Positions 3,362-57,479 of a DNA stretch of 64,000 nt are shown here, piece by piece. The notes under the pieces are model-generated. The model saw only the letters and a program-made list of their open reading frames with translations. It was not told where the DNA came from and ran no database searches. The first letter of the stretch is position 1. Each line of letters starts with the position of its first letter. This DNA comes from an uncultured Lachnospiraceae bacterium (GTDB taxonomy: Bacteria; Bacillota; Clostridia; Christensenellales; UBA1242): positions 4,435 through 68,434 of the forward strand of contig CAZVYB010000001.1 of NCBI GenBank assembly GCA_964631405.1, written 5' to 3'. The translations under genes and the position numbers were made by a program.

Positions 3362-4020
3362 AAATTGATATTTTGACCCTCTTCCCAGAAAGTTTTTCAT
3401 ACCTGAATTCAAGCATTTTGAAGAGGGCACAAGATAGCGGAAAACTTGAAATCAATTTGATTGATATTCGAGAATTTTCAAAAAATAAACATAAAAAATG
3501 TGATGACCAACCTTTTGGCGGTGGTGCGGGTATGCTTATGACTCCACAGCCAATTTATGACGCCGTCAAAAGCGTACAGAAAGAAAACTCACATATCGTT
3601 TTTCCAAGCCCAAGCGGTCAAAATCTCTCCCCAACAATCGCACAAGAACTTGCAAAGAAGGAGCACCTTATTTTCATTTGCGGACACTATGAAGGCATAG
3701 ACCAACGAGTGCTAGACCTTTTGTCACCTCAGGAAATTTCTGTAGGCGACTATGTTTTGACGGGGGGAGAACTGCCAAGCATGGTGATAATTGACTGCCT
3801 TTCAAGATTTATAGACGGGGTGATTTCAAAGGAGAGTTTGACAGAGGAAAGTTTTTCGGCTGGCAATTTGGAATATCCTCAATATACAAGACCTCAGGTT
3901 TTTGAAGGACTGCCAGTTCCAGAAGTTTTGCTTTCTGGCAATCATGCCCAAATTGCAAAGTGGCGTGCCGAAGAGAGCGAAAAAAGGACAAAATCTCGTC
4001 GCCCAGATTTAATAAAATAG
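3358..4020 (+). CDS. trmD: tRNA (guanine37-N1)-methyltransferase TrmD
   Basis: MKIDILTLFPE start, GGGAGMLM and GHYEGIDQRV motifs of TrmD/SPOUT. Confidence 0.95.
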   Translation: MKIDILTLFPESFSYLNSSILKRAQDSGKLEINLIDIREFSKNKHKKCDDQPFGGGAGMLMTPQPIYDAVKSVQKENSHIVFPSPSGQNLSPTIAQELAKKEHLIFICGHYEGIDQRVLDLLSPQEISVGDYVLTGGELPSMVIIDCLSRFIDGVISKESLTEESFSAGNLEYPQYTRPQVFEGLPVPEVLLSGNHAQIAKWRAEESEKRTKSRRPDLIK

Positions 4021-11692: not shown

Positions 11693-11745
11693 AGGGCGTC
11701 GCACCAAAATCGACCTGCACCCGATTTTGACGCTCCGCTTACAAC
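11693..11745 (+). repeat. 53-nt bulged-hairpin motif, copy A (starts 1 nt after parE stop)
   Basis: Outer stem GCGTC/GACGC, bulge GCACC, inner stem AAAATCG/CGATTTT, loop ACCTGCACC, tail CCGCTTACAAC. Aligns without gaps to 15959-16011. Confidence 0.6.
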
Positions 11746-11801
11746 TGAATTTTAAAGAAATTTAACGATAATAAGTGCATAACTGCACAATTGGAGAAGA
11801 T

Positions 11802-24300: not shown

Positions 24301-25978
24301 AATAAAATTTGCAATCAACGCTTCGTCAACAGGCAATGGCACAATCTCGCCGGAGGGTAGCGTGATGGTCGTTCAAGGCGAAAGCCAAGCTTTCACATTC
24401 TCTGCGGGAGAGGGGTATCATATTGCAAGCATAATTGTTGATGGCATTGCTCTTGAAGGCGAAGAAATGGCAGAGGCGTTTACAAACGGATACACCTTCA
24501 CAAATGTTCAAGGCATACACAGCATAAAAGCAGTTTACGAAATTGACACATTTGCAATTTCAGTTGTGGCAACAGGAAACGGCACAATTTCTCCGGCAGG
24601 GGAACAGATTGTCAACTATGGGCAAAACAAGACTTTCTCATTCACTCCAAACGAGGGCTACAAAATAAAAGAAATCATAGTTGACGGACAAAACATGGGT
24701 GTTCTTACATCATATACTTTTGAAAATGTCAAAGAAACCCACTCAATTGAGGCGATATTTGAAAGAATATATTTCACACTGACAATTGTCAGCAATGAAG
24801 GGGGTATAGTCACTCCAAACGGCAATGTTCAAATAGGCTATGGCGACAGCCAAATAATAACAATCACCCCAAATGAACATTTCAATATTGATAAAATCCT
24901 TCTCGACGGAAGCGAAGTTGAAATTTCAAACACGGTCACACTTACAGATGTCAAAAAAGACTATAACTTGCAAATAAAATTTATTGAAATTTTTACTATT
25001 ACATCGGTTGTTGTTGGCGAAGGGACAACCACTCCAACAACCGAAGTCTTGGAAGGTGGACAACTGAAAATTGAATTTTTCCCAGCCGAAGGATACAAAG
25101 TCAAAAATGTAGAAATTGACGGAGTAAGCGTTGGTGCGGTTGAATTTTACATTTTCATTGATGTAAACTCATCTCACACAATCACAGTGGAATTTGCAAT
25201 TAAAACATTTACCATATCACTCAGCGTTGACGGCAAGGGAGAGGCAAAATGTACAGAAACCCTTACCTCAGTAAAATATGGCAGTGAAAGGACAATCACT
25301 ATCACGCCAAACGCTGGCTGGAAAGTGTATAAGGTGTATGTCGACGGAATTGCTCAAACACTTAAAGATGACACATTGACACTTCTCTCAATCACCGAAG
25401 ATATGACAGTTCAAGTGATATTTGAAAGAGGTGAAGATTCAAGCCAAGTAGACGGAACAATGATTGCAATCATTGTCGTAGGTGTTGTGATTGTAGGACT
25501 TTTGGTTGTGCTTATAATGAAAAAGGGCAAAAAACCACCTAAAAATGGGGACAAAAAAGAGGTGAAACCTCAGACATCTAAAAACGCAACTCCAAAACAA
25601 GAACAAAAACAGGAACAGGTGGCGGAAAAAACTGCCGAGATGAAGACGGTTCAGCAAAAACCTCAACAATCAAAAGAGATAGCAACCGAACAAAGACCTC
25701 AGGCAGAGCAAACTGTAACAAAAACAGAACAAAAAACAACTGAAAATTTACAGCAAACAATTCAAAAAACAGAGGAAAAGCCTCAACAATTTGCAACAGA
25801 GCCGAAGAAAATCCCAACTCCACCACAACGACCAATTCCGCCAAGACCACCAGTGCCACCAACAAGACCAATCCCTCCAAAACCACCAGTTCAACCACAA
25901 AGCGGGACGGTCAATCAAAAGGCACTAGAAAGGGCACAGGCCTTCAAAAAGTCAAATGGAGAAAACAAACAAGGCTAA
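21323..25978 (+). CDS. Giant surface protein: papain-like C1 peptidase + Listeria-Bacteroides repeat + 9 InlB-B-type repeats + TM + Pro/Gln-rich tail
   Basis: N-terminal signal with LLSC lipobox-like site. C1 catalytic contexts QGLCWAFGS (Cys), NAGHLVTLIGWDDN (His), ALNSWG (Asn). REGYDFKGWYY...LYADW matches the Flg_new type. TM IAIIVVGVVIVGLLVVLIM then KKGKK. Tail ends PPQRPIPPRPPVPPTRPIPPKPPVQP. Confidence 0.85.
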   Translation: MLRKKNLSYIFLSIIAVLLSCTGLFIGDNDLLSTEQFEEKGFIADAYSSYSELYYSYTDFSSDYDGSTLPAEYCLRDEYMLYTQQQASQGLCWAFGSQTALSTTIMKATGEWLDFSESWISIALTYALNYEGFSDYANTLSGSYLPGGGGYYCSVDLIARKYGLVLEQDCGFEDSSFLTKENTQEFYEFYSKYANTNIMDNIEGGRFLLYNNYASTAKTKIINSMKQHILNNGAIEAGMYWEDYVDEIYNGEAITYKIPSTTANAGHLVTLIGWDDNFSVTYEGTAYTGAWIALNSWGDDLGYDGITYLLYDDTDFNSAFFGWKYTEDTTQDTYFLTTMNDATTGDYTTDKVGAYYGDFSAEEGQTLQQNIFYNVDDVTLVYDYTISTNTQISSTKVIKSDGEDVTRNFDIDVTSNQITYTASDVAVGSYKIVTIVSNATTGETKEYLNAFYVTDGMEIGYGYLYTANTTVSNQGRFQNFNSLYTGSKDFYYATTNTSGNFYMFIIKASYSDILRAVPSSGISIYDAGDYYQLYIQYNFSSSTINHFTITFYNSQNKSSVMNFYIQKTVSGNAYPNLLIETNGGTLNGEELKRLVVSQSSGGKVPTPTREGYDFKGWYYSDDFTSANKLSQTDGEYYIDYDKIINYSSSTVDWQSAFNSYYDHAEVVFLYADWEVSKYTITASVEGGGSISPSGDVEVEYGQNQTFTFLANAGNAISSIYVDGVELTGTTLTNAIANGYTFENVTQNHTIKLVCTANSYSITASCSVGGSISPSGHITITEGLSQTFTFSPNEGYYLSGVTVDGTALDATALADALANGYTFQNVSQNHEIEATFAIQTFTITASKSGSGTISPIGAKTLNYGGMQKYTFTPNEGQKVVSIIIDGEELTGDAYIEAYNNGYYIFENVTENHTITVHFATIYFQIVITHNEGGTVSPDGNVSVAYGESQTITITPNEGYMVSKIVVNGIETTPTNRVSFSNVTSHKTLDITFDTIKFAINASSTGNGTISPEGSVMVVQGESQAFTFSAGEGYHIASIIVDGIALEGEEMAEAFTNGYTFTNVQGIHSIKAVYEIDTFAISVVATGNGTISPAGEQIVNYGQNKTFSFTPNEGYKIKEIIVDGQNMGVLTSYTFENVKETHSIEAIFERIYFTLTIVSNEGGIVTPNGNVQIGYGDSQIITITPNEHFNIDKILLDGSEVEISNTVTLTDVKKDYNLQIKFIEIFTITSVVVGEGTTTPTTEVLEGGQLKIEFFPAEGYKVKNVEIDGVSVGAVEFYIFIDVNSSHTITVEFAIKTFTISLSVDGKGEAKCTETLTSVKYGSERTITITPNAGWKVYKVYVDGIAQTLKDDTLTLLSITEDMTVQVIFERGEDSSQVDGTMIAIIVVGVVIVGLLVVLIMKKGKKPPKNGDKKEVKPQTSKNATPKQEQKQEQVAEKTAEMKTVQQKPQQSKEIATEQRPQAEQTVTKTEQKTTENLQQTIQKTEEKPQQFATEPKKIPTPPQRPIPPRPPVPPTRPIPPKPPVQPQSGTVNQKALERAQAFKKSNGENKQG
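23351..25430 (+). repeat. Nine in-frame ~72-84-aa domain repeats (InlB B-repeat-like) inside the 1551-aa gene
   Basis: Recurrent pattern F/YTITAS..G.GTISP.G...V.YG.SQTFTFTPNEGY.....VDG.......YTFENV...H.I...F read nine times in the translation. Confidence 0.75.
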
Positions 25979-36269: not shown

Positions 36270-39200
36270 TTATTCTTCAATTGAAGAGTTTTTGCGTTCT
36301 GCTTTGTATTGCTCTTTGGCAATTTTCTTTTCGGCAGAGAATTTTGCCTCTTCTTCCATAACAATTTTATTTTCAATTGAAAGGAGATATTCGGCAGTCA
36401 TAACATTATCAATTTTCTCTTTGATGATGTTGATTTTTTCGTTTATTCTTGCAACAGAAGAGTTGTATTTTTTGAATGCCTTTTCCATCTCACGAGTGAG
36501 TTTTCCGTTTGATGTATTTCTGCTTTCTCTTACAAATTCTTTGTGCTTCATTTCAAGTTCTGCCCTGTCATTTTCAAGCATTTTCTTTGCATTTTGAAGG
36601 TCTGCAACCTCTTTGTCACGACGCTTCTTTGCCTCAGCCATCACAACATCGTGGTCAAGACTAAGTTTTCTATCGTAATTTTCTTTTTTAAGTTTGTTGA
36701 TTTTTTTGATTTTGATTTTTCTCAATGCAAAGCCAATGATTGCAATTATAAGTGCAACGCCCATAATGATAGAAGGTATCAAAAGCCAAGCAGAATCGTC
36801 GCTTTCTGAAGTTGTATCTTCGGTGTCTTCCTCTTCTTCCTCAGCCTGTTCACTTTGCACTGTTGTGAAAGTTGTCTTTTCATAAGTTGGAAGCAGGTTT
36901 GCAGAAGCATATTCGTCACTGTTTGATGCCTCGATGTTGAAGTTTGTCAAAAGGGCAGTGCCTGTTGTTTGGTCACAATCAGAGATAAGAGAGAATATGA
37001 AGTTTGCCTCAGTTTCTGTTTCGCATTTGAAATATATGGTGTATGATTTAAGCGTTCCGTCAGTCACAATGTTTTTGATTGCGTCAAAGCCGTCCATTGA
37101 AATTGAAACGCCGTATCCACAATCGTGCTCGTCACTGCCGGCATCTTTTGCCTCGTCGTTGAAGATTGTTGCAAGGTCAAAGGTGAGTTTATAGTAAGAA
37201 TCAGATGCAAAATCAAATTTGTATTTTGAAGAGAGCGAAGCCTTGCTTGCCACTTTGGTTGAAAGTACAAGGAAGTTTGATTTGTCGTTTGTCAAGCCGT
37301 AAGGGTTGTCCTCTCCATTTACGATACCGCCCTCAGCACCAGCCTCACTGCCTTGATATCCATTGTCATATATTTCGTCAACTGCAAAATTGAAAGCAGG
37401 GGAGGAGGTCAATTCGTTTGAAATTTTTCCGTTTGTTTCAAGAGAGAGGAAATAGTCGCTACAATCGGCATTGAATTTGCTTGAAGCGAAGGTTTCTTCG
37501 TCGGCTTCGCTGATTGCAAAGTTGTCAAGATAAACAAGCCCGCCAACCTTTTTGCCTTCTTCATTTTCGCCAAGGTGAACAACAACTTGAATGTCGTGCG
37601 TCACCATCTCGGCGGTGTGAAGATAGATTTCCATTTTGTCCCAATTGTCAAGACTTGAAATGCCATCTTGTGAGAAAAGGGTGATTCCATTTTCGTCAAT
37701 GATTTCCACTTTGATTGAAGAAGGGTTTAAACTTCCAAACAATTGGTTGTAATAGTCGAAAGAAATTTTATAGTAAGAGTTTTTTGCAAGAGAATAAACA
37801 GAAGAAGTCAAAGATTGGTATGAGTTTTGTCTATTGAACATCATATAAACATTGTTTGTTATGGCATTGGTGCTTGATTTAGGAGAAATTCCAGCCCAGT
37901 CGTATTTCCCTGAATACATAGATTTGTACTCGTCGTCTTTGCCAATGTAAATTACTCCACTTTCGTTGTACTGCTCCTTCTCAATTGCCTTTGTCCAATC
38001 ATTTGCGGTGAGAGGGTAGGCATCTTTTGCATCAGAATACTCAGTGCTGTTGAAATATGGGTTTGAGAAACCAGTTGAAGAACCACTGTATGACTTCAAT
38101 TCCAATTTGTCAGTCGCATTTGAAAATTCTTCTGTACCAACAATTTCAACTTCAATGTTGTCGACAACAACACAGCCATATGCATTTGAGGTTGCGTCTC
38201 CAAGCCAAAGTTCTAAATTGACAGAGGTGTTGAAAAGGTCATAGCCTCTTACAAAAAATTCAATTGTTTGATAGTCGTTTGTCCAGTCATTGTCTGTGTT
38301 TGAGGTGTACCCACTTGTTTTTTGGCTGTTAAGTTCATAGAAGATGTCGCTATCCTCGTCACCACTAAACTCAGTAGGGTAGAGCGAATATATGCTTTCA
38401 TTTTCACTTACTTGCACATAGAAAGAGCCCTCTTTCATGCCGGCAACCTTCATTTTCATTGAAATTTTGTATGCTGTGTGAGCCTTGATTTCAATGTTTT
38501 GTGATTTGATACCAATGTGGTTTGTGTAACTTGAATTTGAGGTGGTATATAGCACCAAAGATTTGTCGTTGTTAAAACTAAGGTCATCGCCAACATAGTC
38601 GAAGCCGGTAAGATTTTTAAAGCCCTCCTCTTCTGCGGAAGAAATGGTTTTGGCGAAGCCGTTTACATTGCTGATTGTTTCCCACCCAGTCAAGCCATCT
38701 TCAAAATCAAAGTTGTAAGTGTCGTGATTTGAGATATAGTTTGGAAGGGTTTTAAGCCCGCTTACAAGAAAAACTGTGTTGTTATTTAGTGATTGATAGT
38801 TATCGGTAAAATCATAACCATGCTTTGAAGCAATGTCATAGAAAAGATTTTCGCTATATTTTTCAATGTGGCAGTCGTCGAAGAAAACCGCACCTTGACT
38901 TTTTGCACCATTTGCCGAGCCAAGATATAGGTCGATAGTCACAGTTTGCTCTGTATCGCCAGTTGCAATAAAGAAGTAATAGTCTGTCCAACTGCTTGGC
39001 GAGATGTTTTCGACACCAACTTGCATGGTCTTACCGTCAAGGTCAACAAGTCCAGAAATATATATTGATGCATTCACATAGTCGTCGCCGTTAAGCATTG
39101 TGAGGGCAGAGACCTTGAAAGAGTAGTAAGAATTTTTTGCCAAAGATACAGAAGTTGAACGATAGCCCTTTTTGGCGTCGATATGATGTTGCTCATTATT

Positions 39201-39602
39201 TGCCTTTGAGTTTATCATCAAGATGCGGGTGTCGCTGGTATCTTTGCACTCAGGGTTTGCATTGAGCATATAGGTATCTTTATATTTAGAGAAGGTTGCA
39301 GTTTCGCCATCGCCTTCACTCATTTGCCCACTGCCCACATCAATAATCATGCCAGTCGCACGACTTTCACTTTCAATAGCACTCCAAGAAGAGAGAGTGC
39401 CACTTGAATAAGGCTTGCTTCCAGTTTGAAAGGAGTCGTTTTCAAGAGAAACTTCTTCGTTGTGAGAAGTCGCATAAGAAAGAGCCTCTGCCTTTTTGCT
39501 GAGTGCAGAAGAGGATAGAGAAATCCCCCCAAAGAGTGCCACAGGGAAGAGCAGAACGGCAGATAATTTTAAACATTTAGAGTTGGTTTTAATTTTAGTC
39601 AT
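36270..39602 (-). CDS. Large type I membrane-anchored surface protein with four CBM/jelly-roll-like units and a Lys/Glu-rich coiled-coil cytoplasmic tail
   Basis: Signal peptide. Four units each end in a (V/L)x(F/L)D(D/N)..IE strand (VFFDDCHIEKY, VVVDNIEVEIV, VYLDNFAISEA, LLTNFNIEAS). Acidic linker EEEEEDTEDTTSESDD. TM WLLIPSIIMGVALIIAIIGFAL. ~150-aa charged tail. Confidence 0.8.
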   Translation of the reverse strand: MTKIKTNSKCLKLSAVLLFPVALFGGISLSSSALSKKAEALSYATSHNEEVSLENDSFQTGSKPYSSGTLSSWSAIESESRATGMIIDVGSGQMSEGDGETATFSKYKDTYMLNANPECKDTSDTRILMINSKANNEQHHIDAKKGYRSTSVSLAKNSYYSFKVSALTMLNGDDYVNASIYISGLVDLDGKTMQVGVENISPSSWTDYYFFIATGDTEQTVTIDLYLGSANGAKSQGAVFFDDCHIEKYSENLFYDIASKHGYDFTDNYQSLNNNTVFLVSGLKTLPNYISNHDTYNFDFEDGLTGWETISNVNGFAKTISSAEEEGFKNLTGFDYVGDDLSFNNDKSLVLYTTSNSSYTNHIGIKSQNIEIKAHTAYKISMKMKVAGMKEGSFYVQVSENESIYSLYPTEFSGDEDSDIFYELNSQKTSGYTSNTDNDWTNDYQTIEFFVRGYDLFNTSVNLELWLGDATSNAYGCVVVDNIEVEIVGTEEFSNATDKLELKSYSGSSTGFSNPYFNSTEYSDAKDAYPLTANDWTKAIEKEQYNESGVIYIGKDDEYKSMYSGKYDWAGISPKSSTNAITNNVYMMFNRQNSYQSLTSSVYSLAKNSYYKISFDYYNQLFGSLNPSSIKVEIIDENGITLFSQDGISSLDNWDKMEIYLHTAEMVTHDIQVVVHLGENEEGKKVGGLVYLDNFAISEADEETFASSKFNADCSDYFLSLETNGKISNELTSSPAFNFAVDEIYDNGYQGSEAGAEGGIVNGEDNPYGLTNDKSNFLVLSTKVASKASLSSKYKFDFASDSYYKLTFDLATIFNDEAKDAGSDEHDCGYGVSISMDGFDAIKNIVTDGTLKSYTIYFKCETETEANFIFSLISDCDQTTGTALLTNFNIEASNSDEYASANLLPTYEKTTFTTVQSEQAEEEEEDTEDTTSESDDSAWLLIPSIIMGVALIIAIIGFALRKIKIKKINKLKKENYDRKLSLDHDVVMAEAKKRRDKEVADLQNAKKMLENDRAELEMKHKEFVRESRNTSNGKLTREMEKAFKKYNSSVARINEKINIIKEKIDNVMTAEYLLSIENKIVMEEEAKFSAEKKIAKEQYKAERKNSSIEE

Positions 39603-43938: not shown

Positions 43939-44940
43939 ATGAATAAGATAAGATATGCCATAGAAATAGGCGGTTCGTACACAAAAATATATGTCAAAGA
44001 CGAGGGCTTTGCACTTTGCGAACCAACCCTTATTTCAGCAGAGCCAACCCCACAGGGCTATCAAATTGTGGGCAAGGGCATAGATGCCAAAAATATGATG
44101 GGCAAAACCCATGATGGCGTTGAAGTTTTCAGCCCAATTTCCAATGGCGAGATAATCAATTATGAATATTTGAAAGAACTTCTTTCATATTTCCTCGCAA
44201 AGGTGGATTTTAGGAAGAATAAAGACTCTTGCATCGTGCTTATAAACTGCGGGCTTAGCGGAGAGGAAAAACAAAACTTTTTGCATCTTTTCCATGATGT
44301 AGGCTTTCGTGAAGTGCATCTTGTGCCGACGGTACTTTGCACCTGCATAGGGACTGGCAAAAACATTTCTTCAACCAAGACAAACATGATGGTCAATGTT
44401 GGTGGTGCAAATACAGATATCGCCGTTGTGAATATGAACTGCATTGTCAAGGGGGCGACACTTGGACTTGGCGGAAGGGCGGTTGATGTTGCCATCGCAA
44501 ACCAAATCGCATACAATCACGGTATTGTTGTGGGACTTGGTACAATTGAAAGACTTAAAATTCAGGTGGGAAGCCTATACCAAAATGATACACTTAATAT
44601 GGAGATTACAGGCATTGATGTTGAAAGCAAAGTTCCTCGCTCATACATCATCTCTTCAAATGACCTTTTGCCGGTGCTAGAACCATTTTTTGAGGAAATC
44701 ATCAGGGCAATAGATGTCACAATCACCTCATTGCCACCAGAACTTTCAACAGACATCATCAATAACGGTGTACTTTTTGCTGGCGGAATGAGCAAAATTG
44801 CAGGACTTGAAAACTTTTTGAGAAGAAATTTCAGATACCCATTCAAGATTGTTGATGACGCAGAAAATGTATCAATTTTAGGTGCGGGAAAACTTCTTGA
44901 CGACCCAGAACTGCTTGAAACAATCATTCAAAATGCATAA
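43939..44940 (+). CDS. mreB: MreB/Mbl-family actin-like protein (divergent)
   Basis: Collinear with MreB: IEIGGSYTKIYV, NVGGANTDIAVV, LFAGGMSKIAGLENFL; no mreC/mreD downstream. Confidence 0.75.
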   Translation: MNKIRYAIEIGGSYTKIYVKDEGFALCEPTLISAEPTPQGYQIVGKGIDAKNMMGKTHDGVEVFSPISNGEIINYEYLKELLSYFLAKVDFRKNKDSCIVLINCGLSGEEKQNFLHLFHDVGFREVHLVPTVLCTCIGTGKNISSTKTNMMVNVGGANTDIAVVNMNCIVKGATLGLGGRAVDVAIANQIAYNHGIVVGLGTIERLKIQVGSLYQNDTLNMEITGIDVESKVPRSYIISSNDLLPVLEPFFEEIIRAIDVTITSLPPELSTDIINNGVLFAGGMSKIAGLENFLRRNFRYPFKIVDDAENVSILGAGKLLDDPELLETIIQNA

Positions 44941-44959
44941 CTGACCAAATTTGACAATA

Positions 44960-44992
44960 AAGGGAGGAAAACGACAAGCCTTCCCTTTTTTT
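44960..44992 (+). terminator. Terminator after mreB-like gene
   Basis: AGGGAGG/CCTTCCCT stem followed by T7. Confidence 0.7.
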
Positions 44993-45035
44993 GTTACACC
45001 ATTTTTTGGTACAATGAAAGGCAGAAGGGGGCATT

Positions 45036-45827
45036 ATGGCAAGAAAAATTGTTATGACAAGCGGAAAGGGAGGGGTTGGAAAAACCACAGTGTGTGCAAA
45101 CCTTGGCACAAACCTTGCAAAACTAGGCTTTCGAGTCGCCCTTTTTGACGCCGATATAGGACTTAATAATCTTGATGTGGTTATGGGTATTGAAGGACAG
45201 GTGGTGTTTGATATAACAGATGTGGTTATGGGCAGATGCCGTGCAAAACAGGCACTGGTTCAGGTCAAAAACCTTTCTTCACTTTATGTTATGCCCTCAT
45301 CTCACGCATACCATAAATCAAATGTTCAGGGAGAGAACATCAAAAATGTCATGGAACAACTTGACAGCAGTTTTGACTATATTTTGATAGATTGCCCGGC
45401 GGGGGTGGAAGCGGGCTTTCATAGGGCGGTTTATTCGGCAAATGAGGCACTTGTGGTTGTCACACCACACCTTTCATCAATTCGTGACGCAGACAAGGTG
45501 CTTGGTATTTTGGAGGAATATGACCTGTCAAACAAAAGCCTTGTCATAAATCGCATGAGGGGGGATATGCTACTAAACGGCGATATTATGACAATAGAAA
45601 ACATAGTAGAAGCACTCGGGTTGCCTCTCGTAGGCGTCATTCCAGAAGACGATATGGTTTGCTCTTCTTGTTCGGTTGGCGGACGATTGCAATCGGGGGA
45701 GAGCCAAAGGGCGTTCACACTGCTTAGCGAAAATATCCATAACGGCTCGAAAAAGATTTTTGATTGCACATATAAATATCGCGGACTTATGGGCTATCTA
45801 AAACGAAATATCAAAAAGAGGGTATAA
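45036..45827 (+). CDS. minD: Septum site-determining ATPase MinD
   Basis: Deviant Walker A SGKGGVGKTT, DADIGLNNLD, IDCPAG; C-terminal amphipathic helix GLMGYLKRNIKKRV. Confidence 0.92.
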   Translation: MARKIVMTSGKGGVGKTTVCANLGTNLAKLGFRVALFDADIGLNNLDVVMGIEGQVVFDITDVVMGRCRAKQALVQVKNLSSLYVMPSSHAYHKSNVQGENIKNVMEQLDSSFDYILIDCPAGVEAGFHRAVYSANEALVVVTPHLSSIRDADKVLGILEEYDLSNKSLVINRMRGDMLLNGDIMTIENIVEALGLPLVGVIPEDDMVCSSCSVGGRLQSGESQRAFTLLSENIHNGSKKIFDCTYKYRGLMGYLKRNIKKRV

Positions 45828-45829
45828 AT

Positions 45830-46057
45830 ATGGACTATCAAATAAAACAGCGTATGCAATACATTTTAGACGAGGATAAAATGCAAGACCCACAAAGGGT
45901 GTGCAAACTTTTGGAAGAGGACTTAAAAAGCGTGATTGAAAACTACCTTTCTCTCAGCGAAGATATAAAAGTGAGGTATAAAAAAGAAAACAATAAAAAA
46001 ATCTTTTTTGTAGAAATTCAAGCCCAAAGAATAAAGCCTTTCGGTTATGTCCCATAA
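45830..46057 (+). CDS. minE: MinE-like topological specificity factor (short N-terminus)
   Basis: Position directly after minD; QRMQYILDEDK and LEEDLKSVIENYLSLSEDIKV resemble the MinE core; the usual N-terminal membrane-targeting segment is not evident. Confidence 0.6.
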   Translation: MDYQIKQRMQYILDEDKMQDPQRVCKLLEEDLKSVIENYLSLSEDIKVRYKKENNKKIFFVEIQAQRIKPFGYVP

Positions 46058-46146: not shown

Positions 46147-49100
46147 TTAGTAAGTTCCCCAAGTTGGATACAAAGTTGCATTTCCAGCCACGGTGTAAGA
46201 AGTCAGTATTGTATAATTATCATTTGAAACACCGTTGGATATGTTTTTCACACCTTCGGTATTCCAAGTAAGCACCTTAAAGTTATAAGTTCCAGTAATT
46301 CTCATTGCTTGGTATGTGTATACGCAGGTTGAAGTGTATGCAGAAGGGTCAAAAGTTGTGCCTTCCAGAAGGGTGAGTGCGGAAACTGCTGTTGGTGCAG
46401 TTTTGCAAACAATTTTTCCCGTCCAAGCATTGTTGTTGTCCATCCATTCGTCACATTTTGTCCAACCAACATTGAATGTGATTGTGTAGTATTTCTTTGT
46501 TTCAACCGTCCAAACGGCTACGATAGAAAGGTCGCTGTTTGGCATCACGCTAGGCACTTCGCCAAGATTGCTATTTACAAGATATCCGACAAATGTATAA
46601 GTGATTTTTCTTGTTGTGCCGTCATCGTCATAGTATGTGCTTTGACTTGGCAGAGTAAGAGTCGCACCCTGCCATACCTTTTCGCTTGTGTCTTGCACCG
46701 TACCATAAGTTGACTTATAAGCGAGGGTGTATTGATTGCGGATATGCAAAGCAAGGTCGCCCTCAGGCATAGTGAAGTCGCCTTCGTAAAGGGTGGTGTA
46801 GTTGGCTTCTAAATAGAATTTGGTTGTGTCGTTCACTTTTGAAAGCCCAGAAAGGTCAATTGAATTGCCGGCAAGGATATATTTTGTGTAAATCACACTG
46901 CCGTTGTCATAAAGTTGAAGCATATGTGCCTCTTCGACATCGGCGACCTCCCATTTTGCATAGAGCGTCATGTCGGCACTTGGCATTGTGTAAGTTGTAA
47001 ATTCAGTTGTAAGGGTCTCGTCAGTATACCAGCCATCAAAGGTATAGATTGTCACAGAAGTTTCCGCCACTTCTTCTTTGATTGAAAGCGATGGAAGGGT
47101 GATGTTGCTTCCTTCAAGCCCTTTGATAGGTTCAATTGTTTCACTTGAATTTGTTACAAACGAGATAGTTCGATAATATTTTACATATTCATACCATTTT
47201 GCGTACAAAGTTTTGTCGCCTTTTGGAATGGTGTTGCCGGTAAACTCAGTGCCTTCGTCGAAGGTTGAAGTTGTATACCAACCTACAAATATTTTTGTCA
47301 CCTGCATTACGCCGTCATCAGTTTGCATTGGAGAAAGGGAAGGAAGGCTGAATTCTGTGCCATAAGCCCCAGAAATATCTTGCACTGTTTCGCCACCATT
47401 TTCTTCAAAGGTGATAGTGTAGATAATTTCACTTGCCTTTGACCAAGACCCGTTGCTTGCCTCCCATTCAGCGTCAAAGGCGTATTGATAGCCATTGACA
47501 TAGTCATAAAGTTTGCTCATATCAACAGCCTTGCCCCAGTCAACAAGCATGGTATCATCAGTTGAAAGAGTAAGTTCAAATACACTTGCAAGAGGCATAA
47601 ACATTTCAAGCCCAAGACTTTGAATGATAGATTCTCCCTCCTCATCAACCCCAAGACCAAGGTCAAGGGTGAGGGTATCAAGAAGTTCATTGTTTGCAAT
47701 TTCAGCCATGTTTAAAATGACTTCAAAGTTTTCTCCGTCCACAATAGTAAGACTGTTGACGGTGTTGTTAAGGTTGATAGGTTCTTCACGGTTCATTGCC
47801 TTTGAGAAAGAGTCTTCAATTGCAGACATGATGCTGTCGGAGAACCCAAGGGCATATTGGAAATAGTACATCGGATTTGCAAGCAGAGTTTCAACGGTGA
47901 TTTTGGTGCATTTTTCATAAGTTCTTGCGTCCCAACCAAAGAGTTGGTTGACAAGTTCTGTTCGGTAGATGTAAACAGCCCCGTCTTTCATATAGATTGT
48001 CACATATCTGCCTTTTCCGCCGTTTGTGTCACCAGTTTTATATGGTACATCGTTGTTAAGACCCACCACAACAGGGATTTCGCCCATAGTCATAAGCATT
48101 TCAATGTCGCCGTTGTTGTCCTTGATTTGAATATCAAAAGGAATGTTCCAAGAGATGTCAATTCCAATCAAAGTACCCACAACATCAAAACTGCCTGCGA
48201 TGTGGAAGTCTTTTTGCTTAGCCATGTTCAGGAAAGCCTCAACAAGGTCAAGCACATCGTCGAGAGAGGTGTAGATTGAGTTATCAATCACAGGGATTTC
48301 GCCTGTCACCGCACCGCCAATAATCATTCCACTTGCGTCTGTGGTTGCAAAATCAATTTGTGTTGCACCATTTATGATGGTGATAGTAATTCCACCAACG
48401 CCAATTTCAAGCCCGTTTTCAAGTTGGGTGAGGTGAGAGATAAGCACTGATGTGCTATTTGGGTTTATCACATCAAATATTGTGTCAATGATAGATGTTG
48501 TATCAATAATGTCTGCAATTTCAAATGTTATGTCCGCTTTTTCAAGCAGATTTTCAAGTGTTGCAGGCAGTGTTTCAAAGTCTGCTACAAGTTTGATAGA
48601 AGTTGCAAACTCAATATACACCTTTCCGCCATAGTACATGATTTTTACATTTGCACCTTGAATAACGGTGTTAAACTCAGCGTAAATGTCATTGATATCT
48701 GCTTTGTTTACATAATAGTCAACAACAATTGGTTCACTAAGCCCGATGTTCAAAGTTACGCTTCCACTGATTGCTTCGCTGTTTATGATATCAATAGCAT
48801 TTTCAATGGTAGGAAGAAGAGAAACCAGTTCAACGTAAGTGTCTTCGCTGACAGAAAGTGCAATGTCCTCAAATCCGATAAGTTCGCAATTTACATCAAA
48901 ACCACTTCCAATAAATGAGATATTTGAAAGAACTTTGTCGGTAAGAGTAAGCGAAATGTTGCCAATTTCCTTAATTGAAATTGTTGTGATATTGCCATCG
49001 ACCATAACTCCATCAAAGAATGAAAGGTCAAAAGCACTAAGGTCAATTACAAGCCCCAGTTCTTTGAGTTTTGCAAGAGGCTCTTTGCTGTTTTCTGTTT

Positions 49101-52100
49101 CGATGATAGAGTTTACAATTTGGGTAAGAGGAATTTCAATTCCAAACTTGTTTGCAAGCAAACTTTCAATTTTGTCAATGTCGCTTACGGCGAACTTAGC
49201 GTAGATGTTGCCAAGTTCAAGGTAAGCAACTTCGCCTTTGACGATGACATTGAAAGAAACATCATTTGCAAGAACACAAACCTTGATTTCTTTGTTTGCA
49301 ATGTCAAGGAAGAGTTTGCCGGAAGCAGAAGTTTGATTGTATTCAATTTCAAAGTCAAGCCCGATAAGCCCAGATTTAAGATAGTTGAGGGCACCTTCCG
49401 CAAGGTCAATGAACCCTTTGTTGATTGCCTTGCCGGCAATTGCAAGTATATTTTCAATGGTGTTGTATTCACTTTCAACAATTTCCATTCGCTCAATGCT
49501 GATGTCCCCACCAATGATAGAGATGTTTGCCGAATATTTGTCATACCCCATAGCCAATGAAAGTGCAGTAGAGCCATTTTCAATTGAAAGGGTGATGTTA
49601 TTCAAGATTTCAATGTCAAAGCCATTTGTAGTTTCAACAAAACCAGTTACAAGGAAAGGTTTTTCTTCATCGAAGAGAATTGCAAGGACAGCCCCGATAG
49701 CAGTTTGGATAGCCTCGCCACTATCTGGAATAGAATACCCAATCTCAGCAACAAAGTCACTGATAGCAGTAGGGAGATTGTCGATAGCAGAAACCAACTT
49801 GAATGTGTCAGCAAAGTTAATGAATACTTTTCCGTCAGCGTAAACGATAGAGATATTTCCGCCGTAGATAGAAGTAGAAAATTCAGCGTAGATGTCATTT
49901 GCATCTTTCTTGTCAACCACATAGTCAATGACAAGGTCGAAGCCGTCAATATTTGCCTCAATTTGTCCGCTGATAGTGTTTGAAGAAAGAATATCAATAG
50001 CATTTTCAAGCGTAGGGAAGAGTTTTGCAATGTCAACATATCTGTCCTCATTTGCAGAGAGAGCAAAGTCTTTAAAACCAACAAGGTCAACACTTGCAGT
50101 AATGCCATTTCCAACAAAGCCGATGTTTGAAAGAACTTTGTCGGTAAGGGTAAGAGAGATTTCTCCAACACCTTCAACAGGGATAGTAGTTGTGTTGCCA
50201 TCAACGACAATGCTGTCGAAGAAGCCAAGGTCAATGCTAGAAAGATTGATAATGATGCCAAGTTCGGCAAGTTTTGCAAGCGGAGCAGAAGAATTTTGGA
50301 TATCTTCAATTTCCTGCATAATTTCACTGATAGGAATTTCAATTCCAAACTTGTTTGCAAGCAAACTTTCAATCTTGTCAATGTCGCTTACGGCGAACTT
50401 AGCGTAGATGTTGCCAAGTTCAAGGTAAGCAACTTCGCCTTTGACGATGACATTGAAAGAAACATCATTTGCAAGAACACAAACCTTGATTTCTTTGTTT
50501 GCAATGTCAAGGAAGAGTTTGCCGGAAGCAGAAGTTTGATTGTATTCAATTTCAAAGTCAAGCCCGATAAGCCCAGATTTAAGATAGTTGAGGGCACCTT
50601 CCGCAAGGTCAATGAACCCTTTGTTGATTGCCTTGCCGGCAATTGCAAGTATATTTTCAATGGTGTTGTATTCACTTTCAACAATTTCCATTCGCTCAAT
50701 GCTGATGTCCCCACCAATGATAGAGATGTTTGCCGAATATTTGTCATACCCCATAGCCAATGAAAGTGCAGTAGAGCCATTTTCAATTGAAAGGGTGATG
50801 TTATTCAAGATTTCAATGTCAAAGCCATTTGTAGTTTCAACAAAACCAGTTACAAGGAAAGGTTTTTCTTCATCGAAGAGAATTGCAAGGACAGCCCCGA
50901 TAGCAGTTTGGATAGCCTCGCCACTATCTGGAATAGAATACCCAATCTCAGCAACAAAGTCACTGATAGCAGTAGGGAGATTGTCGATAGCAGAAACCAA
51001 CTTGAATGTGTCAGCAAAGTTAATGAATACTTTTCCGTCAGCGTAAACGATAGAGATATTTCCGCCGTAGATAGAAGTAGAAAATTCAGCGTAGATGTCA
51101 TTTGCATCTTTCTTGTCAACCACATAGTCAATGACAAGGTCGAAGCCGTCAATATTTGCCTCAATTTGTCCGCTGATAGTGTTTGAAGAAAGAATATCAA
51201 TAGCATTTTCAAGCGTAGGGAAGAGTTTTGCAATGTCAACATATCTGTCCTCATTTGCAGAGAGAGCAAAGTCTTTAAAACCAACAAGGTCAACACTTGC
51301 AGTAATGCCATTTCCAACAAAGCCGATGTTTGAAAGAACTTTGTCGGTAAGGGTAAGAGAGATTTCTCCAACACCTTCAACAGGGATAGTAGTTGTGTTG
51401 CCATCAACGACAATGCTGTCGAAGAAGCCAAGGTCAATTTTGCTAAGGTCAATCACAAGGCCAAGCCCGGCAAGAGTTGCGAAAGGGGTGTTGCTATTGA
51501 TGTTGTCGATAATTTCAACAACCATGCCAAGAGGAAGGTCGATGCCAAAACGGTCACTTAAAATTCTCTCAACTTCGACAAGGTCGCTGATGTGGAATTG
51601 AGCAAAAATGTTCGCAAATTCAAGATATACTGCTTTGTTTTGAGCGAGAATGCCCACTTCTTGCCCCTCAATATCAAGGACAAGTTTAAGAGATTTGTTC
51701 TTGAGGTTGAGTGCAAGGCTTCCGCAAAGAGGAGAGCCATTTATTTCAACTGCGAAATCAAAAGCCATATTCCCTTGAAGGGCATAGTTAATAATGCCTT
51801 CGGTTGCCCCAAGAAGCCCCGATTTAAAATATGCTTCTGTAAGATATAACATATCTTTAAATTGAGCAAACCTGCCCGCATTTTCAATGATAGGCATTTG
51901 CACGACTTGTTCACTGCCAAGAACTGACAGGTTGATTGCAAAGTCGCCATTTCCTGTTGAAATAAGGATTTTCTTTTCACTGTTTTGGGCGATAATTTCT
52001 AGACCTTCACTTGAAAGGATAAATCCGTCAGCTGTTTGCTCCAAACCTGTGAAAAGGGTATTGCCTCTGTTTACCAAAAGCCCGAGCCCGGCAAAGATTT

Positions 52101-53769
52101 GGGAGAGAGAGGAAAGTTCAACATCAAGTTCCAGTTCTGCCAAAAAGTCGTTAAGGTCATTTTGAAGGGTTGTCATATCAATAACGACCAAAGATTGCTC
52201 TGCAAAAGAGATGAAAACTTGGTTGTCAAGAAGTTCAATTTTAAGTTGCCCGCCAAGAATGTCGCCCCAGATAGAGCCGTACATCTCGCCAGCAATATTG
52301 AAAGAATATTCAAGAGGAATAGAAATTCCGCCAATTTCAAATATAATTTCGCCAGATAGGGTAGGAGATTGAAGGATAGAAATTGCATTTTCTGCCGTTG
52401 GGAGGAGAAGTGCAAGGTCGATGTAGTTTTCTTTTTTCATTGAAAGAGCATATTCTTTAAAGTCTTTTGTTTTCAAAACTGCACTGATGTCATGCCCGCT
52501 GTATGCAATTTTTGCAAGTTCGCCATTGTCAAGGGTGGTGATTCCAAAATCGCCAATTTCACGAAGGGTGAAAGCAGTCAAATTGCCCTTTGCAACAACA
52601 CTTTCAAGGATTGAAAGGTCGATGTCGCTAGGCGAAATGTTTATGTCAAAACTATTCATAATCGAAGCAATGTCACCATTTTTAAGTGCTTGCAAGATTT
52701 CGGTGATGGTGTCGAGTGGCACACTTATATCAAAATAGGTTTCAAGAATTTGATTTATTTGTTCAAATTCGCTGAGAGCAAAACTAGCAAAAATATTGCC
52801 ATATTCTATATATATAATGTTGTCAATTGCGAATAAACTCAATTTTTCGCCAAAAAGGTCAATGGTCGCCATTGAGGAAAGTCCCACAAGGTCGGCGTAT
52901 AAAGAGCCGTCAAGTTTATTGCCCATAAAATCAAAGTCAAAGTCAAAAGCAATGCCATCGTTGTTCATAAAACTAAGCACACTTTCGGCAGAGGCCAGAA
53001 GGTTTCCAACTTTGATATATTCGCTTTCAATCCTTTCTTCAATTTCAACAAACTCAGGGTAGGTGATTTTTGAAGAGAGGGAAAGGGAAGAGTTGTCGCC
53101 AAAAGCAATTTCAGGCAAAGCCATTTCTTGCACGCAATAGTCGAGGTCGCAGACGAGGTTGAGTTTGCCTACAACTGGCACATCAATCACGAGAGTGATT
53201 TCCTTGTCGCCCTTTTCTTCAGTGAAGTTTGTCAAAAATCCCAAAATCATTTCAGGGGATAAAGAAGAAAGGTCAAGCGAGCCAAGTTCAGGGACTTCAA
53301 TGTCAAGGATTTTCATGATTGACATGATAGGCTCAATGATAGTTGCCGTGTCAAGGGCAAGTCGCCCGCCAAACATATCAAAGAATGCAACGCCGTTTTG
53401 ATAGGAAAAATCAATGTTATATATCGTTGACGCTCTCGAAAGCCCAGCCTCGGCGATTTTGATAGAGCCGTCAAGAGCGAGATTTTCAAAACCGTTTGAA
53501 GTGTCCATTTCCATCGCGACATCTATTATATAGTTGTCACTGCCGGAGGATATGCCTGCCGAAAGGTTGATTTGCATTGCGTCCTCATTTGCAATGTTTT
53601 CATAAATGCTGGTCAGTTGCTCAGGGAGAGGCTCACTTTGACTGCCATTCATAGCATTTTGCATATTAGAAGCATTGTTCATGGAGATTGTGATAGCACC
53701 ATAAGCAGAGCCTATGGACATAACCATAAACAATAATGTATAGGATAGATATTTAAAAAACTTTCTCAT
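46147..53769 (-). CDS. 2540-aa secreted giant protein: signal peptide, ~5 tandem ~401-aa modules of unrecognised type, unique central domain, C-terminal Listeria-Bacteroides (Flg_new-type) repeats
   Basis: Uninterrupted 7.6-kb ORF. Signal MRKFFKYLSYTLLFMVMSIGSAYG/A. RBS AAGGAGA. Recurrent module landmarks (Y.E.GNI.A.F..S....I..L) and (ENAI.IL.S.T.SG). C-terminal FVGWYT..LYAKW and FDGWYT..LYAKW repeats. Confidence 0.9.
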   Translation of the reverse strand: MRKFFKYLSYTLLFMVMSIGSAYGAITISMNNASNMQNAMNGSQSEPLPEQLTSIYENIANEDAMQINLSAGISSGSDNYIIDVAMEMDTSNGFENLALDGSIKIAEAGLSRASTIYNIDFSYQNGVAFFDMFGGRLALDTATIIEPIMSIMKILDIEVPELGSLDLSSLSPEMILGFLTNFTEEKGDKEITLVIDVPVVGKLNLVCDLDYCVQEMALPEIAFGDNSSLSLSSKITYPEFVEIEERIESEYIKVGNLLASAESVLSFMNNDGIAFDFDFDFMGNKLDGSLYADLVGLSSMATIDLFGEKLSLFAIDNIIYIEYGNIFASFALSEFEQINQILETYFDISVPLDTITEILQALKNGDIASIMNSFDINISPSDIDLSILESVVAKGNLTAFTLREIGDFGITTLDNGELAKIAYSGHDISAVLKTKDFKEYALSMKKENYIDLALLLPTAENAISILQSPTLSGEIIFEIGGISIPLEYSFNIAGEMYGSIWGDILGGQLKIELLDNQVFISFAEQSLVVIDMTTLQNDLNDFLAELELDVELSSLSQIFAGLGLLVNRGNTLFTGLEQTADGFILSSEGLEIIAQNSEKKILISTGNGDFAINLSVLGSEQVVQMPIIENAGRFAQFKDMLYLTEAYFKSGLLGATEGIINYALQGNMAFDFAVEINGSPLCGSLALNLKNKSLKLVLDIEGQEVGILAQNKAVYLEFANIFAQFHISDLVEVERILSDRFGIDLPLGMVVEIIDNINSNTPFATLAGLGLVIDLSKIDLGFFDSIVVDGNTTTIPVEGVGEISLTLTDKVLSNIGFVGNGITASVDLVGFKDFALSANEDRYVDIAKLFPTLENAIDILSSNTISGQIEANIDGFDLVIDYVVDKKDANDIYAEFSTSIYGGNISIVYADGKVFINFADTFKLVSAIDNLPTAISDFVAEIGYSIPDSGEAIQTAIGAVLAILFDEEKPFLVTGFVETTNGFDIEILNNITLSIENGSTALSLAMGYDKYSANISIIGGDISIERMEIVESEYNTIENILAIAGKAINKGFIDLAEGALNYLKSGLIGLDFEIEYNQTSASGKLFLDIANKEIKVCVLANDVSFNVIVKGEVAYLELGNIYAKFAVSDIDKIESLLANKFGIEIPISEIMQEIEDIQNSSAPLAKLAELGIIINLSSIDLGFFDSIVVDGNTTTIPVEGVGEISLTLTDKVLSNIGFVGNGITASVDLVGFKDFALSANEDRYVDIAKLFPTLENAIDILSSNTISGQIEANIDGFDLVIDYVVDKKDANDIYAEFSTSIYGGNISIVYADGKVFINFADTFKLVSAIDNLPTAISDFVAEIGYSIPDSGEAIQTAIGAVLAILFDEEKPFLVTGFVETTNGFDIEILNNITLSIENGSTALSLAMGYDKYSANISIIGGDISIERMEIVESEYNTIENILAIAGKAINKGFIDLAEGALNYLKSGLIGLDFEIEYNQTSASGKLFLDIANKEIKVCVLANDVSFNVIVKGEVAYLELGNIYAKFAVSDIDKIESLLANKFGIEIPLTQIVNSIIETENSKEPLAKLKELGLVIDLSAFDLSFFDGVMVDGNITTISIKEIGNISLTLTDKVLSNISFIGSGFDVNCELIGFEDIALSVSEDTYVELVSLLPTIENAIDIINSEAISGSVTLNIGLSEPIVVDYYVNKADINDIYAEFNTVIQGANVKIMYYGGKVYIEFATSIKLVADFETLPATLENLLEKADITFEIADIIDTTSIIDTIFDVINPNSTSVLISHLTQLENGLEIGVGGITITIINGATQIDFATTDASGMIIGGAVTGEIPVIDNSIYTSLDDVLDLVEAFLNMAKQKDFHIAGSFDVVGTLIGIDISWNIPFDIQIKDNNGDIEMLMTMGEIPVVVGLNNDVPYKTGDTNGGKGRYVTIYMKDGAVYIYRTELVNQLFGWDARTYEKCTKITVETLLANPMYYFQYALGFSDSIMSAIEDSFSKAMNREEPINLNNTVNSLTIVDGENFEVILNMAEIANNELLDTLTLDLGLGVDEEGESIIQSLGLEMFMPLASVFELTLSTDDTMLVDWGKAVDMSKLYDYVNGYQYAFDAEWEASNGSWSKASEIIYTITFEENGGETVQDISGAYGTEFSLPSLSPMQTDDGVMQVTKIFVGWYTTSTFDEGTEFTGNTIPKGDKTLYAKWYEYVKYYRTISFVTNSSETIEPIKGLEGSNITLPSLSIKEEVAETSVTIYTFDGWYTDETLTTEFTTYTMPSADMTLYAKWEVADVEEAHMLQLYDNGSVIYTKYILAGNSIDLSGLSKVNDTTKFYLEANYTTLYEGDFTMPEGDLALHIRNQYTLAYKSTYGTVQDTSEKVWQGATLTLPSQSTYYDDDGTTRKITYTFVGYLVNSNLGEVPSVMPNSDLSIVAVWTVETKKYYTITFNVGWTKCDEWMDNNNAWTGKIVCKTAPTAVSALTLLEGTTFDPSAYTSTCVYTYQAMRITGTYNFKVLTWNTEGVKNISNGVSNDNYTILTSYTVAGNATLYPTWGTY
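47800..52960 (-). repeat. In-frame tandem array of ~1203-bp (401-aa) coding modules, variably diverged
   Basis: Period 1203 bp, deduced from duplicated alternative-frame ORFs in the track (for example 49185-49583 vs 50388-50786) and from reading the protein; the outer modules are clearly diverged. Confidence 0.75.
49129..51438 (-). repeat. Two adjacent modules identical over 1107 bp (49129-50235 and 50332-51438), 1 mismatch
   Basis: Direct comparison of sequence lines. Identity starts at AGGAATTTCAAT (49129/50332) and ends at AAGGTCAAT (50235/51438). The single difference is T/C at 49171/50374. The 96-bp junctions are diverged. Confidence 0.9.
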
Positions 53770-55498: not shown

Positions 55499-55527
55499 AT
55501 TATATAATAAATAAAGGCGTTTGTCAA
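55499..55527 (-). promoter_or_regulatory. Perfect consensus sigma-A promoter of the giant-protein operon
   Basis: Minus strand TTGACA (55527-22), exactly 17 nt, TATAAT (55504-55499); T9A9 tract at 55531-48 immediately upstream. Confidence 0.75.
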
Positions 55528-56458: not shown

Positions 56459-56628
56459 AAAAAGCGTCTTAATTTGAGGCGTTTTTTGTTTTGCTTAAAG
56501 CCCCGCAAAAGAAAATGCTGATAGACAAAAGTTAAATTCTGGCAAAACCTATGCTCATGAATAGGCAGGCGTGCAGATGATTTCAACGGCATTTGTGCGA
56601 TATTGACGGAAAGATTTTTGGAGGAATA
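56459..56628 (+). promoter_or_regulatory. Long structured 5' UTR of rplM-rpsI (possible L13-type ribosomal protein leader)
   Basis: ~165 nt between promoter and ATG. Hairpin plus T6 run at 56464-88. Further hairpins TTTTGC/GCAAAA and CCTAT/ATAGG. An L13 leader is known in low-GC Gram-positives, but I cannot verify a match by eye. Confidence 0.3.
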
Positions 56629-57072
56629 ATGAAAACATATATGGCAAAACCAGCGGACATTGAAAGAAAATGGTTCGTTGTAGACGCAGCAGGCGTGCCT
56701 CTTGGAAGAGTAGCAAGCCAAGTTGCAGACATTTTGACAGGAAAAAATAAAACAATCTATACACCACATGTAGACTGCGGAGATTTCGTTGTGGTAATCA
56801 ATTCTGATAAGGCAGTCCTTACAGGAAAAAAACTTACTGACAAAAAACTTAGATGGCATACAGGCTATGTTGGCGGACTTAAAGAAGTTGACTATGGCAC
56901 ACTTATGCAAAAGGATTCACCAAAGGCAGTTCACACTGCTGTAAAAGGAATGCTTCCTAAGACAACACTTGGCAGAAAGCAAATCACAAGACTTCATATC
57001 TATAAAGATGAGGCTCATAAACACGAGGCTCAAAAACCAGAAAAAGTTGAAGTAAAAGGAGCAAGAAACTAA
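56629..57072 (+). CDS. rplM: 50S ribosomal protein L13
   Basis: [20 protein letters not shown] typical L13 N-terminus; GGAGGA RBS; start 56629 rather than 56593. Confidence 0.95.
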
Positions 57073-57479
57073 TGGCAGAGAAAAAGACAAAGCCAGCACA
57101 AATTATTTCAACTGGCAGAAGAAAGAAATCAATTGCAAGAGTAAGACTTTTTGCAGGTGAGGGACAAAACCTTGTAAATGGCAGAGATATGGGCGAGTAT
57201 CTTCAAAGAGATACACTCCTTTTGGTTGCAGAACAACCATTTGAAGTATCAGGCACAAAGGGCAAATATCATGCAATCGTTCGTGTGACTGGTGGCGGAA
57301 TTTCTGGTCAAGCAGGTGCAATTTGCCACGGTATCGCTCGTGCTCTTGTAAAGGCTGATGAACAACTCAAACCAGAAATCAAGAAAGCAGGACTTCTCAC
57401 AAGAGATTCAAGAATGAAGGAAAGAAAGAAGTACGGTTTGAAGAAGGCAAGAAAGTCATCACAATTCTCAAAGAGATAA
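57072..57479 (+). CDS. rpsI: 30S ribosomal protein S9
   Basis: C-terminal [25 protein letters not shown] typical of S9; overlaps the rplM stop. Confidence 0.95.

Follow-up and report, generated by a model that had tools for sequence, protein, structure and literature searches.

We analyzed a 64,000-nucleotide (nt) stretch of contig CAZVYB010000001.1 (assembly GCA_964631405.1, positions 4,435 to 68,434 of the forward strand) from an uncultured Lachnospiraceae bacterium of the GTDB lineage Christensenellales, UBA1242; this whole stretch is called the window below. On its minus strand lies one giant open reading frame (ORF) of 2540 amino acids (aa), which encodes a putative secreted protein built around an array of modules of about 400 aa. 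Two neighboring modules of this array, Mc and Md, have bodies that are identical except for one nucleotide, and between these bodies lies a diverged 96-bp segment, the linker of Mc, which we call J. Our preferred explanation, which we consider probable on the sequence evidence, is that Mc is an older extra module whose body was recently overwritten by its neighbor Md through gene conversion (or an equivalent double exchange), with linker J left unconverted.

Positions 49129-50235 and 50332-51438 of the window match at 1106 of 1107 nt, the sole mismatch being T at 49171 against C at 50374, and a match of this extent cannot be due to chance. An earlier reading made from the letters of this DNA (the sequence-only reading) had described two segments identical but for this T/C difference, and recomputing the comparison gave exactly the same result. 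A repeat search of the window recovered the same pair; Tandem Repeats Finder, whose period limit is 500, gave no call on the module repeat. The two copies are spaced by 1203 nt, that is exactly 401 codons, and both belong to the single ORF 46147..53769, so that the identical tract represents 0.92 of a period. Self-comparison of the protein in fragments showed that the encoded blocks, residues 778-1146 and 1179-1547, are the same at the protein level, in agreement with the 369-aa identical block that had been claimed; the lone mismatch is synonymous (AAG versus AAA, both Lys). At an offset of 1203 nt, the identity calculated per 100 nt is 100% within the tract, about 25-30% (chance level) past the upper tract end and 57-72% below the lower end over 48801-49100, where conserved module heads are aligned. 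In the first 100 nt flanking the tract it is 50-51% on either side.

On both strands at the block, we looked for an embedded gene, a mobile element or an RNA. The antisense and out-of-frame ORFs had no Pfam match and there was no Rfam match, and such elements were consequently rejected as the cause of the DNA identity. We also considered an old duplication whose two bodies would have been held identical by purifying selection on the protein. The protein blocks are indeed identical, but selection of this kind could not have preserved identity at about 250 synonymous sites, 54% of which differ in the orthologue, and no opposite-strand or RNA-level constraint on the DNA was found. The identity at synonymous sites effectively refutes this explanation, to which we give next to no credence.

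The array consists of three full modules (Mb, residues 383-777; Mc, 778-1178; Md, 1179-1579) and two partial ones, the first of which is the end of the N-terminal cap, corresponding to the last ~115 positions of a module. Outside the Mc/Md pair the modules are about 27-45% identical to each other at the aa level, with values of 29-43% for the other adjacent modules. We compared this array with those of relatives retrieved from gut metagenome-assembled genomes (MAGs), all of which are at most 73% identical to the window at the nt level; one is titled "Clostridia bacterium" and comes from water-deer colon, and another comes from a human Hadza/Nepal sample. The modules of the window protein and of two of its homologues, P0001 and P0003, are positional orthologues, Mc and Md being together co-orthologous to one module in the latter two. 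The closest relative, P0001 (locus L001), is exactly 401 residues shorter when its true start is taken 15 codons upstream of the called start. Identity between the block and the single L001 module stays at 70-82% along the full length (about 75% at the nt level), and the proportion of synonymous sites that differ (pS) between the block and its L001 orthologue, 0.54, equals that of the orthologous linker, 0.50. This equality, together with the uniform identity, indicates that the block belongs to the Md lineage. At the one site where Mc and Md differ the orthologue carries the Mc base, so that the difference is derived in Md.

J is the in-frame homologue of the other module linkers and shares their motif GIEIP...PLAKL.ELG...L, and its nt identity to every other linker is only 50-57%. 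Compared with the Md linker it has a pS of 0.84 and a proportion of differing non-synonymous sites (pN) of 0.40; against the linkers of Md, L001 and a third locus, L004, pS ranges from 0.77 to 0.84 and is saturated. These three linkers, which are mutual orthologues, show pS values of 0.43-0.58 among themselves, and J is an outgroup to all three. Nucleotide identity is 73% between the Md linker and its counterpart in the single L001 module and 75% between the Mb linkers of the window and L001, values that are normal for orthologues in a giant gene that is 71-77% identical overall. No closer match to J was present in the window or in 22 homologues. Alignments of linkers and modules thus bear out the diverged 96-bp junction and flanking modules of the sequence-only reading. 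Two further origins of J were rejected: an unequal crossover, which would have left a chimeric linker with Md and Mb parts, because there are no identical stretches, and adenine-specific mutagenesis of the diversity-generating retroelement type, because on inspection the substitutions are of all types.

A body of the Md lineage with practically zero divergence joined to a linker that is older than the species split is the signature of gene conversion. The two copies are far closer to each other (99.9%) than to their orthologue (about 75%), the boundaries are sharp with flanks at the old divergence on each side, and the tract is shorter than one period. This last point disfavors a simple fresh duplication, since the copies made by a new tandem duplication must be identical over no less than 1.00 period. 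The sequence-only reading had proposed a very recent module duplication or gene conversion; the synonymous saturation of J and the Md ancestry of the block argue for its second option, and the tract of 0.92 period speaks against the first in its simple form.

A duplication could be reconciled with these data if the 1203-nt module was recently duplicated in tandem in the window lineage, by unequal crossing-over or slippage, and if the 96-bp linker was then replaced by foreign or paralogous sequence, or J was supplied by a diverged incoming allele. P0001 and P0003 have exactly one module fewer at this place, so that a gain is the most parsimonious count, and duplications of whole periods do occur in the family, with tracts of 1.00 period in locus L005 and 1.55 periods in locus L002. 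This scenario requires two events, however, and a donor with a J-type linker between such modules, none of which was seen in the window or the 22 homologues. Moreover, J lacks the chimeric Md/Mb structure that an unequal crossover would leave, and identity breaks off abruptly at both tract ends, precisely at the linker edges. We regard this sequence of events as unlikely, though well above negligible.

Under gene conversion, the preferred explanation, Md or its immediate ancestor would have been the donor and the older extra module Mc the acceptor. The first 369 codons of the Mc body would have been overwritten by non-reciprocal homologous exchange, the 96-bp J segment would have escaped and kept its old divergence, and one synonymous change would have arisen in the Md copy afterwards, probably after the event. 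We infer the recombination mechanism and its direction from the mosaic described above. Rough bacterial substitution rates would place the block-pair event, with its single difference in 1107 nt, centuries to a few thousand years ago, and the divergence of about 25% from the nearest relatives is vastly older.

Several points weigh against this explanation. The divergence figures for J come from just 32 codons with about 21 synonymous sites. The event count over P0001, L003 (where visible) and P0003 favors one gain in the window lineage, as an old extra module implies two losses. Conversion of the RecA type needs prior similarity and would be hard to start on an acceptor body as diverged as J (57%); a difficult first conversion would imply either ongoing homogenization since the module arose or a different origin of J. 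Finally, among the relatives found there was no sister genome with a diverged acceptor body, i.e. with the state before conversion. On the other side of the count, the age of J speaks for an extra module of ancient origin that was lost twice, or for the import of a module from another lineage, and losses would be easy because a deletion between homogenized blocks removes J and leaves the architecture of P0001.

Few close sequences were available for these comparisons. The public gene index contained no exact match to the giant protein or to the window MreB, and an S9 look-up returned just a 2.9-kb contig of a relative with 91.5% nt identity that is devoid of the giant gene; the nearest genome is the fragmented MAG GCA_053313075.1, with about 91% nt identity. 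A genome scan over a species-representative set gave L003 as the sole relative, and a metagenome scan gave none. L003 (MAG Clostridia bacterium RGIG8744; positions 10001-12490 of the locus) lies on a contig that stops 160 nt into the module corresponding to Mc. Such a contig end would fit a break made by a short-read assembler if near-identical modules are present there too.

An assembly artifact was also considered for the window itself, as assemblers are known to err at tandem repeats (PMC6868369). The genome could hold a single block that was duplicated by the assembler, or two strain variants could have been stitched in tandem, and with the exact protein absent from the public gene index no independent assembly confirms the pair. 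Errors at repeats, however, usually collapse copies and seldom add them (PMC6868369). J is unique, in frame and homologous to the other linkers, and it is entered from a block end and exits into a block start; reads containing J consequently imply that the block is traversed at least twice. A chimera of strains would need bodies that are 100% identical and yet linkers that are only 57% identical, the ORF is unbroken over 7.6 kb, and the single-nucleotide difference that distinguishes the copies lies 43 nt inside the block edge. We consider an artifact quite improbable, and if anything the true number of block copies could exceed two.

The sequence-only reading had also presented the pair as a substrate for recombinational expansion and contraction. 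Direct repeats of 1.1 kb that are 96 bp apart would now be an efficient substrate for unequal exchange of the RecA type or for replication misalignment. A deletion between the blocks would remove J and yield a gene with two full modules, exactly as in the nearest relatives such as P0001, and an expansion would add modules and lengthen the secreted protein. Indirect support for this proposal comes from the relatives, which carry one to five full modules in a conserved locus and of which the nearest have the architecture expected from deletion; some of the differences are possibly due to short-read collapse. As for the comparison of module number in relatives that had been suggested as a check, the number does vary from one to five, in a comparison run on relatives at the identity level given above.

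In detail, one full module is found in P0016 to P0018, two in P0001, P0003 and P0007, three in the window protein and P0005, four in P0004 and P0006 and five in P0002, and the lengths of the family proteins step by about 400 aa. P0016 (L009) and P0007 (L007) are 100% identical save for one module of 409 aa, and P0005 (L010) and P0002 (L002) are 99.8% identical save for 798 aa, i.e. two modules. At least six other members of the family contain near-identical module tracts. In L005 (P0008) the tract is 1784 nt long at an offset of 1779, which is 1.00 period, with 6 mismatches; in L002 (P0002) it is 1854 nt long at an offset of 1197, which is 1.55 periods and represents three tandem copies, with 3 mismatches. 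In two relatives whose duplicated tracts span a full period, the few mismatches are not evenly spread but concentrated near the 3' end of the tract (nt 3742-3830 of the L005 gene and nt 2349-2577 of the L006 gene). Possible reasons for this are a partial later homogenization or a crossover within already similar sequence. In all, recurrent gain and loss of modules by recombination is plausible. Some of the shorter alleles may nevertheless result from assembly collapse, as P0005 lies on a MEGAHIT k141 contig and the near-identical pairs possibly stem from one sample or from similar ones. For this gene family, the copy numbers and lengths recorded in MAG catalogues built from short reads are probably unreliable, and the lengths may often be underestimates.

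To our module profile the 1.84 billion representative proteins searched contributed 303 clusters (at 50% identity), mostly of proteins of 1300-4100 aa. The ~400-aa module itself had no match in Pfam, NCBIfam or a PDB profile search, which returned noise only. A literature search on this protein family found nothing specific, and the module appears to belong to an undescribed family. We modeled residues 618-1178 (1.4 modules) with AlphaFold2 from an input of 19 aligned module segments. The model has a mean predicted local distance difference test score (pLDDT) of 72.8 and a predicted template modeling score (pTM) of 0.48, so that the arrangement of domains relative to each other is unreliable. 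It shows helical segments alternating with beta meanders of 5 and 6 strands. The best PDB matches of the model in Foldseek were LolA, RseB and MucB (E 5e-6 to 1e-3, probability 1.0), with template modeling scores (TM-scores) of only 0.3-0.44 on the target. In the LolA/RseB fold, about 11 antiparallel strands form an unclosed beta half-barrel with a helical plug. Each module thus probably consists of two LolA/RseB-like half-barrels, a predicted resemblance to be taken as a lead and not as family membership. J and the equivalent segments follow directly after an invariant proline and comprise two short helices and the loop of lowest confidence; in the model the unconverted segment is an inter-module linker.

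Taken together with the variation in module number, this leads us to a tentative proposal that we find possible but would not yet lean on: a sizeable, undescribed family of giant secreted proteins from uncultured gut Clostridia, built from tandem modules of 400 aa with two LolA/RseB-like half-barrels each and encoded beside a conserved membrane-anchored partner, at a locus that keeps its place between rplM-rpsI and minD/mreB. The number of modules (1 to at least 5) would be tuned by homologous recombination in the manner of a 'periscope', the linkers being spared. If this holds, the window shows a freshly homogenized pair that is poised for the next expansion or contraction. More speculatively, the protein might be a chain of lipid-binding domains, variable in length, across the envelope.

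The closest described class is that of the Periscope Proteins, bacterial surface proteins of variable length such as SasG/Aap, Rib, Sgo_0707, Esp and CdrA (Whelan et al. 2021, PMC8201768), in which the high DNA identity of adjacent repeats has been proposed to permit intragenic recombination and the gain or loss of repeats (PMC8201768). Intragenic homogenization and concerted evolution have been described for spidroin repeats (PMC3933166) and prokaryotic paralogues (PMC6053082), and the invasins YrInv/YrIlm of Yersinia ruckeri contain DNA-identical repeats of ~300 bp that are under-counted in short-read assemblies (PMC6868369). The window gene would be similar in principle to the Periscope Proteins: it encodes a putatively secreted multidomain protein with tandem modules, one adjacent pair of modules is nearly identical in DNA, and the assembled genes of relatives differ in their module counts (1-5). 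It differs from them in that just two of its ~4.5 modules are near-identical, the rest being stable positional orthologues across species, and in its unit, a two-domain module of 401 aa instead of a single domain of ~80-130 aa. Its predicted fold is LolA/RseB-like and not immunoglobulin-like or SHIRT, and neither LPXTG nor another wall anchor was seen in the protein.

With concerted evolution the window shares copies that are far more alike than either is to its orthologue, sharp boundaries and unconverted flanks. In contrast to the usual cases, a single module pair is homogenized, its linker is excluded and the rest of the array is without concerted evolution in this lineage. Like YrInv/YrIlm, the window has DNA-identical repeats in the gene of a large secreted protein, for which the assembled repeat number depends on the sequencing method, whereas the protein family is a different one and the Yersinia proteins have a Gram-negative host and many short repeats. 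Deletion of identical tandem repeats in the group B Streptococcus alpha C protein (bca)/Rib reportedly alters protein size and antigenicity (Madoff et al. 1996). Perfect in-frame direct repeats in the gene of a secreted protein serve there, and would serve in the window, as substrates for recombinational deletion, but the alpha C protein and Rib have many short repeats (246 bp) that include the junctions, and the window has one 1107-bp pair split by a diverged linker.

The mechanism we propose is a textbook one, gene conversion or unequal exchange between intragenic repeats, and this process is well known; the protein family in which it would act is uncharacterized. If the pair is confirmed by reads, it would show a giant secreted protein being remodeled by recombination in an uncultured gut bacterium and would mark a place at which differences in protein length between strains are to be expected. 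Of broader interest is the protein family, whose module has no Pfam model and a LolA-like predicted fold and whose locus is conserved beside cell-shape genes.

The features of the giant gene and of its surroundings are collected in Table 1. The Flg_new repeats matched above the curated cut-offs, with 65.7 bits for PF09479 (cut-off 27, E 4e-18) and 42.5 bits for TIGR02543 (cut-off 20.95). The term 'surface protein' used in the sequence-only reading would follow from the signal-peptide-like sequence and these repeats. No LPXTG, lipobox or S-layer homology domain was seen in the giant protein, and no wall anchor was found.

Table 1. Positions in the window of the giant gene, its parts and its expression signals.
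Feature	Coordinates	Strand	Remarks
Giant ORF, 2540 aa	46147..53769	-	Signal peptide, N-terminal cap, array of ~400-aa modules, ~250-aa post-array region, C-terminal Flg_new repeats
Predicted signal peptide, residues 1-24	53698..53769	-	Cleavage MRKFFKYLSYTLLFMVMSIGSAYG-then-A; conserved in homologues; read by eye from the sequence
Module Mb, residues 383-777	51439..52623	-	33-34% identical to Mc/Md; orthologous to Mb of P0001 (62%)
Mb linker (tail)	51439..51534	-	Diverged; lies directly upstream of block copy 1
Identical block copy 1, body of module Mc, residues 778-1146	50332..51438	-	Ancestral G (C on the + strand) at 50374
Junction J, Mc linker, residues 1147-1178	50236..50331	-	Not homogenized
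Identical block copy 2, body of module Md, residues 1179-1547	49129..50235	-	Derived synonymous A (T on the + strand) at 49171
Md linker, residues 1548-1579	49033..49128	-	Orthologous to the linker of the single L001 module (73% nt)
Partial module Me, residues 1580-1907	48049..49032	-	Module positions 1-273; head 62-72% nt identical to the Md head
C-terminal Listeria-Bacteroides / Flg_new repeat region, about residues 2117-2540	46150..47421	-	
Partner gene, 470 aa	53785..55197	-	Charged N-terminus, one hydrophobic segment, no Pfam match; its end is 16 nt upstream of the giant gene
Perfect sigma-70 consensus (TTGACA-17-TATAAT) ahead of the gene pair	55499..55527	-	Consensus match only
Hairpin and T-run terminator directly after the giant-gene stop codon	46108..46143	-	Consensus match only

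Given the promoter consensus ahead of the partner gene and the terminator hairpin that follows the giant gene, these two genes look like an operon. The N-terminal ~160 aa of the partner are highly charged, and a counterpart of 369-452 aa stands at the same place in every related locus. All relatives retrieved keep the locus order rpsI-rplM, partner gene, giant gene, small ORF, MinD-like ATPase, MreB and HtrA-like protease. The place of the giant gene between rplM-rpsI and the cell-shape and division genes is fixed in relatives down to ~25% protein identity. The small ORF beside the giant gene is MinE-sized, and the flanking gene sets lie at 43939-46057 (+) and 56593-57479 (+) of the window. 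Elsewhere in the window, a second large protein of secreted type (1551 aa, 21323-25978, plus strand) combines a papain-family peptidase C1 domain with Flg_new and Flg_new_2 repeats. An ORF of 1110 aa at 36270-39602 (minus strand) is without a Pfam match; L001 encodes a corresponding protein of 1112 aa in the equivalent place.

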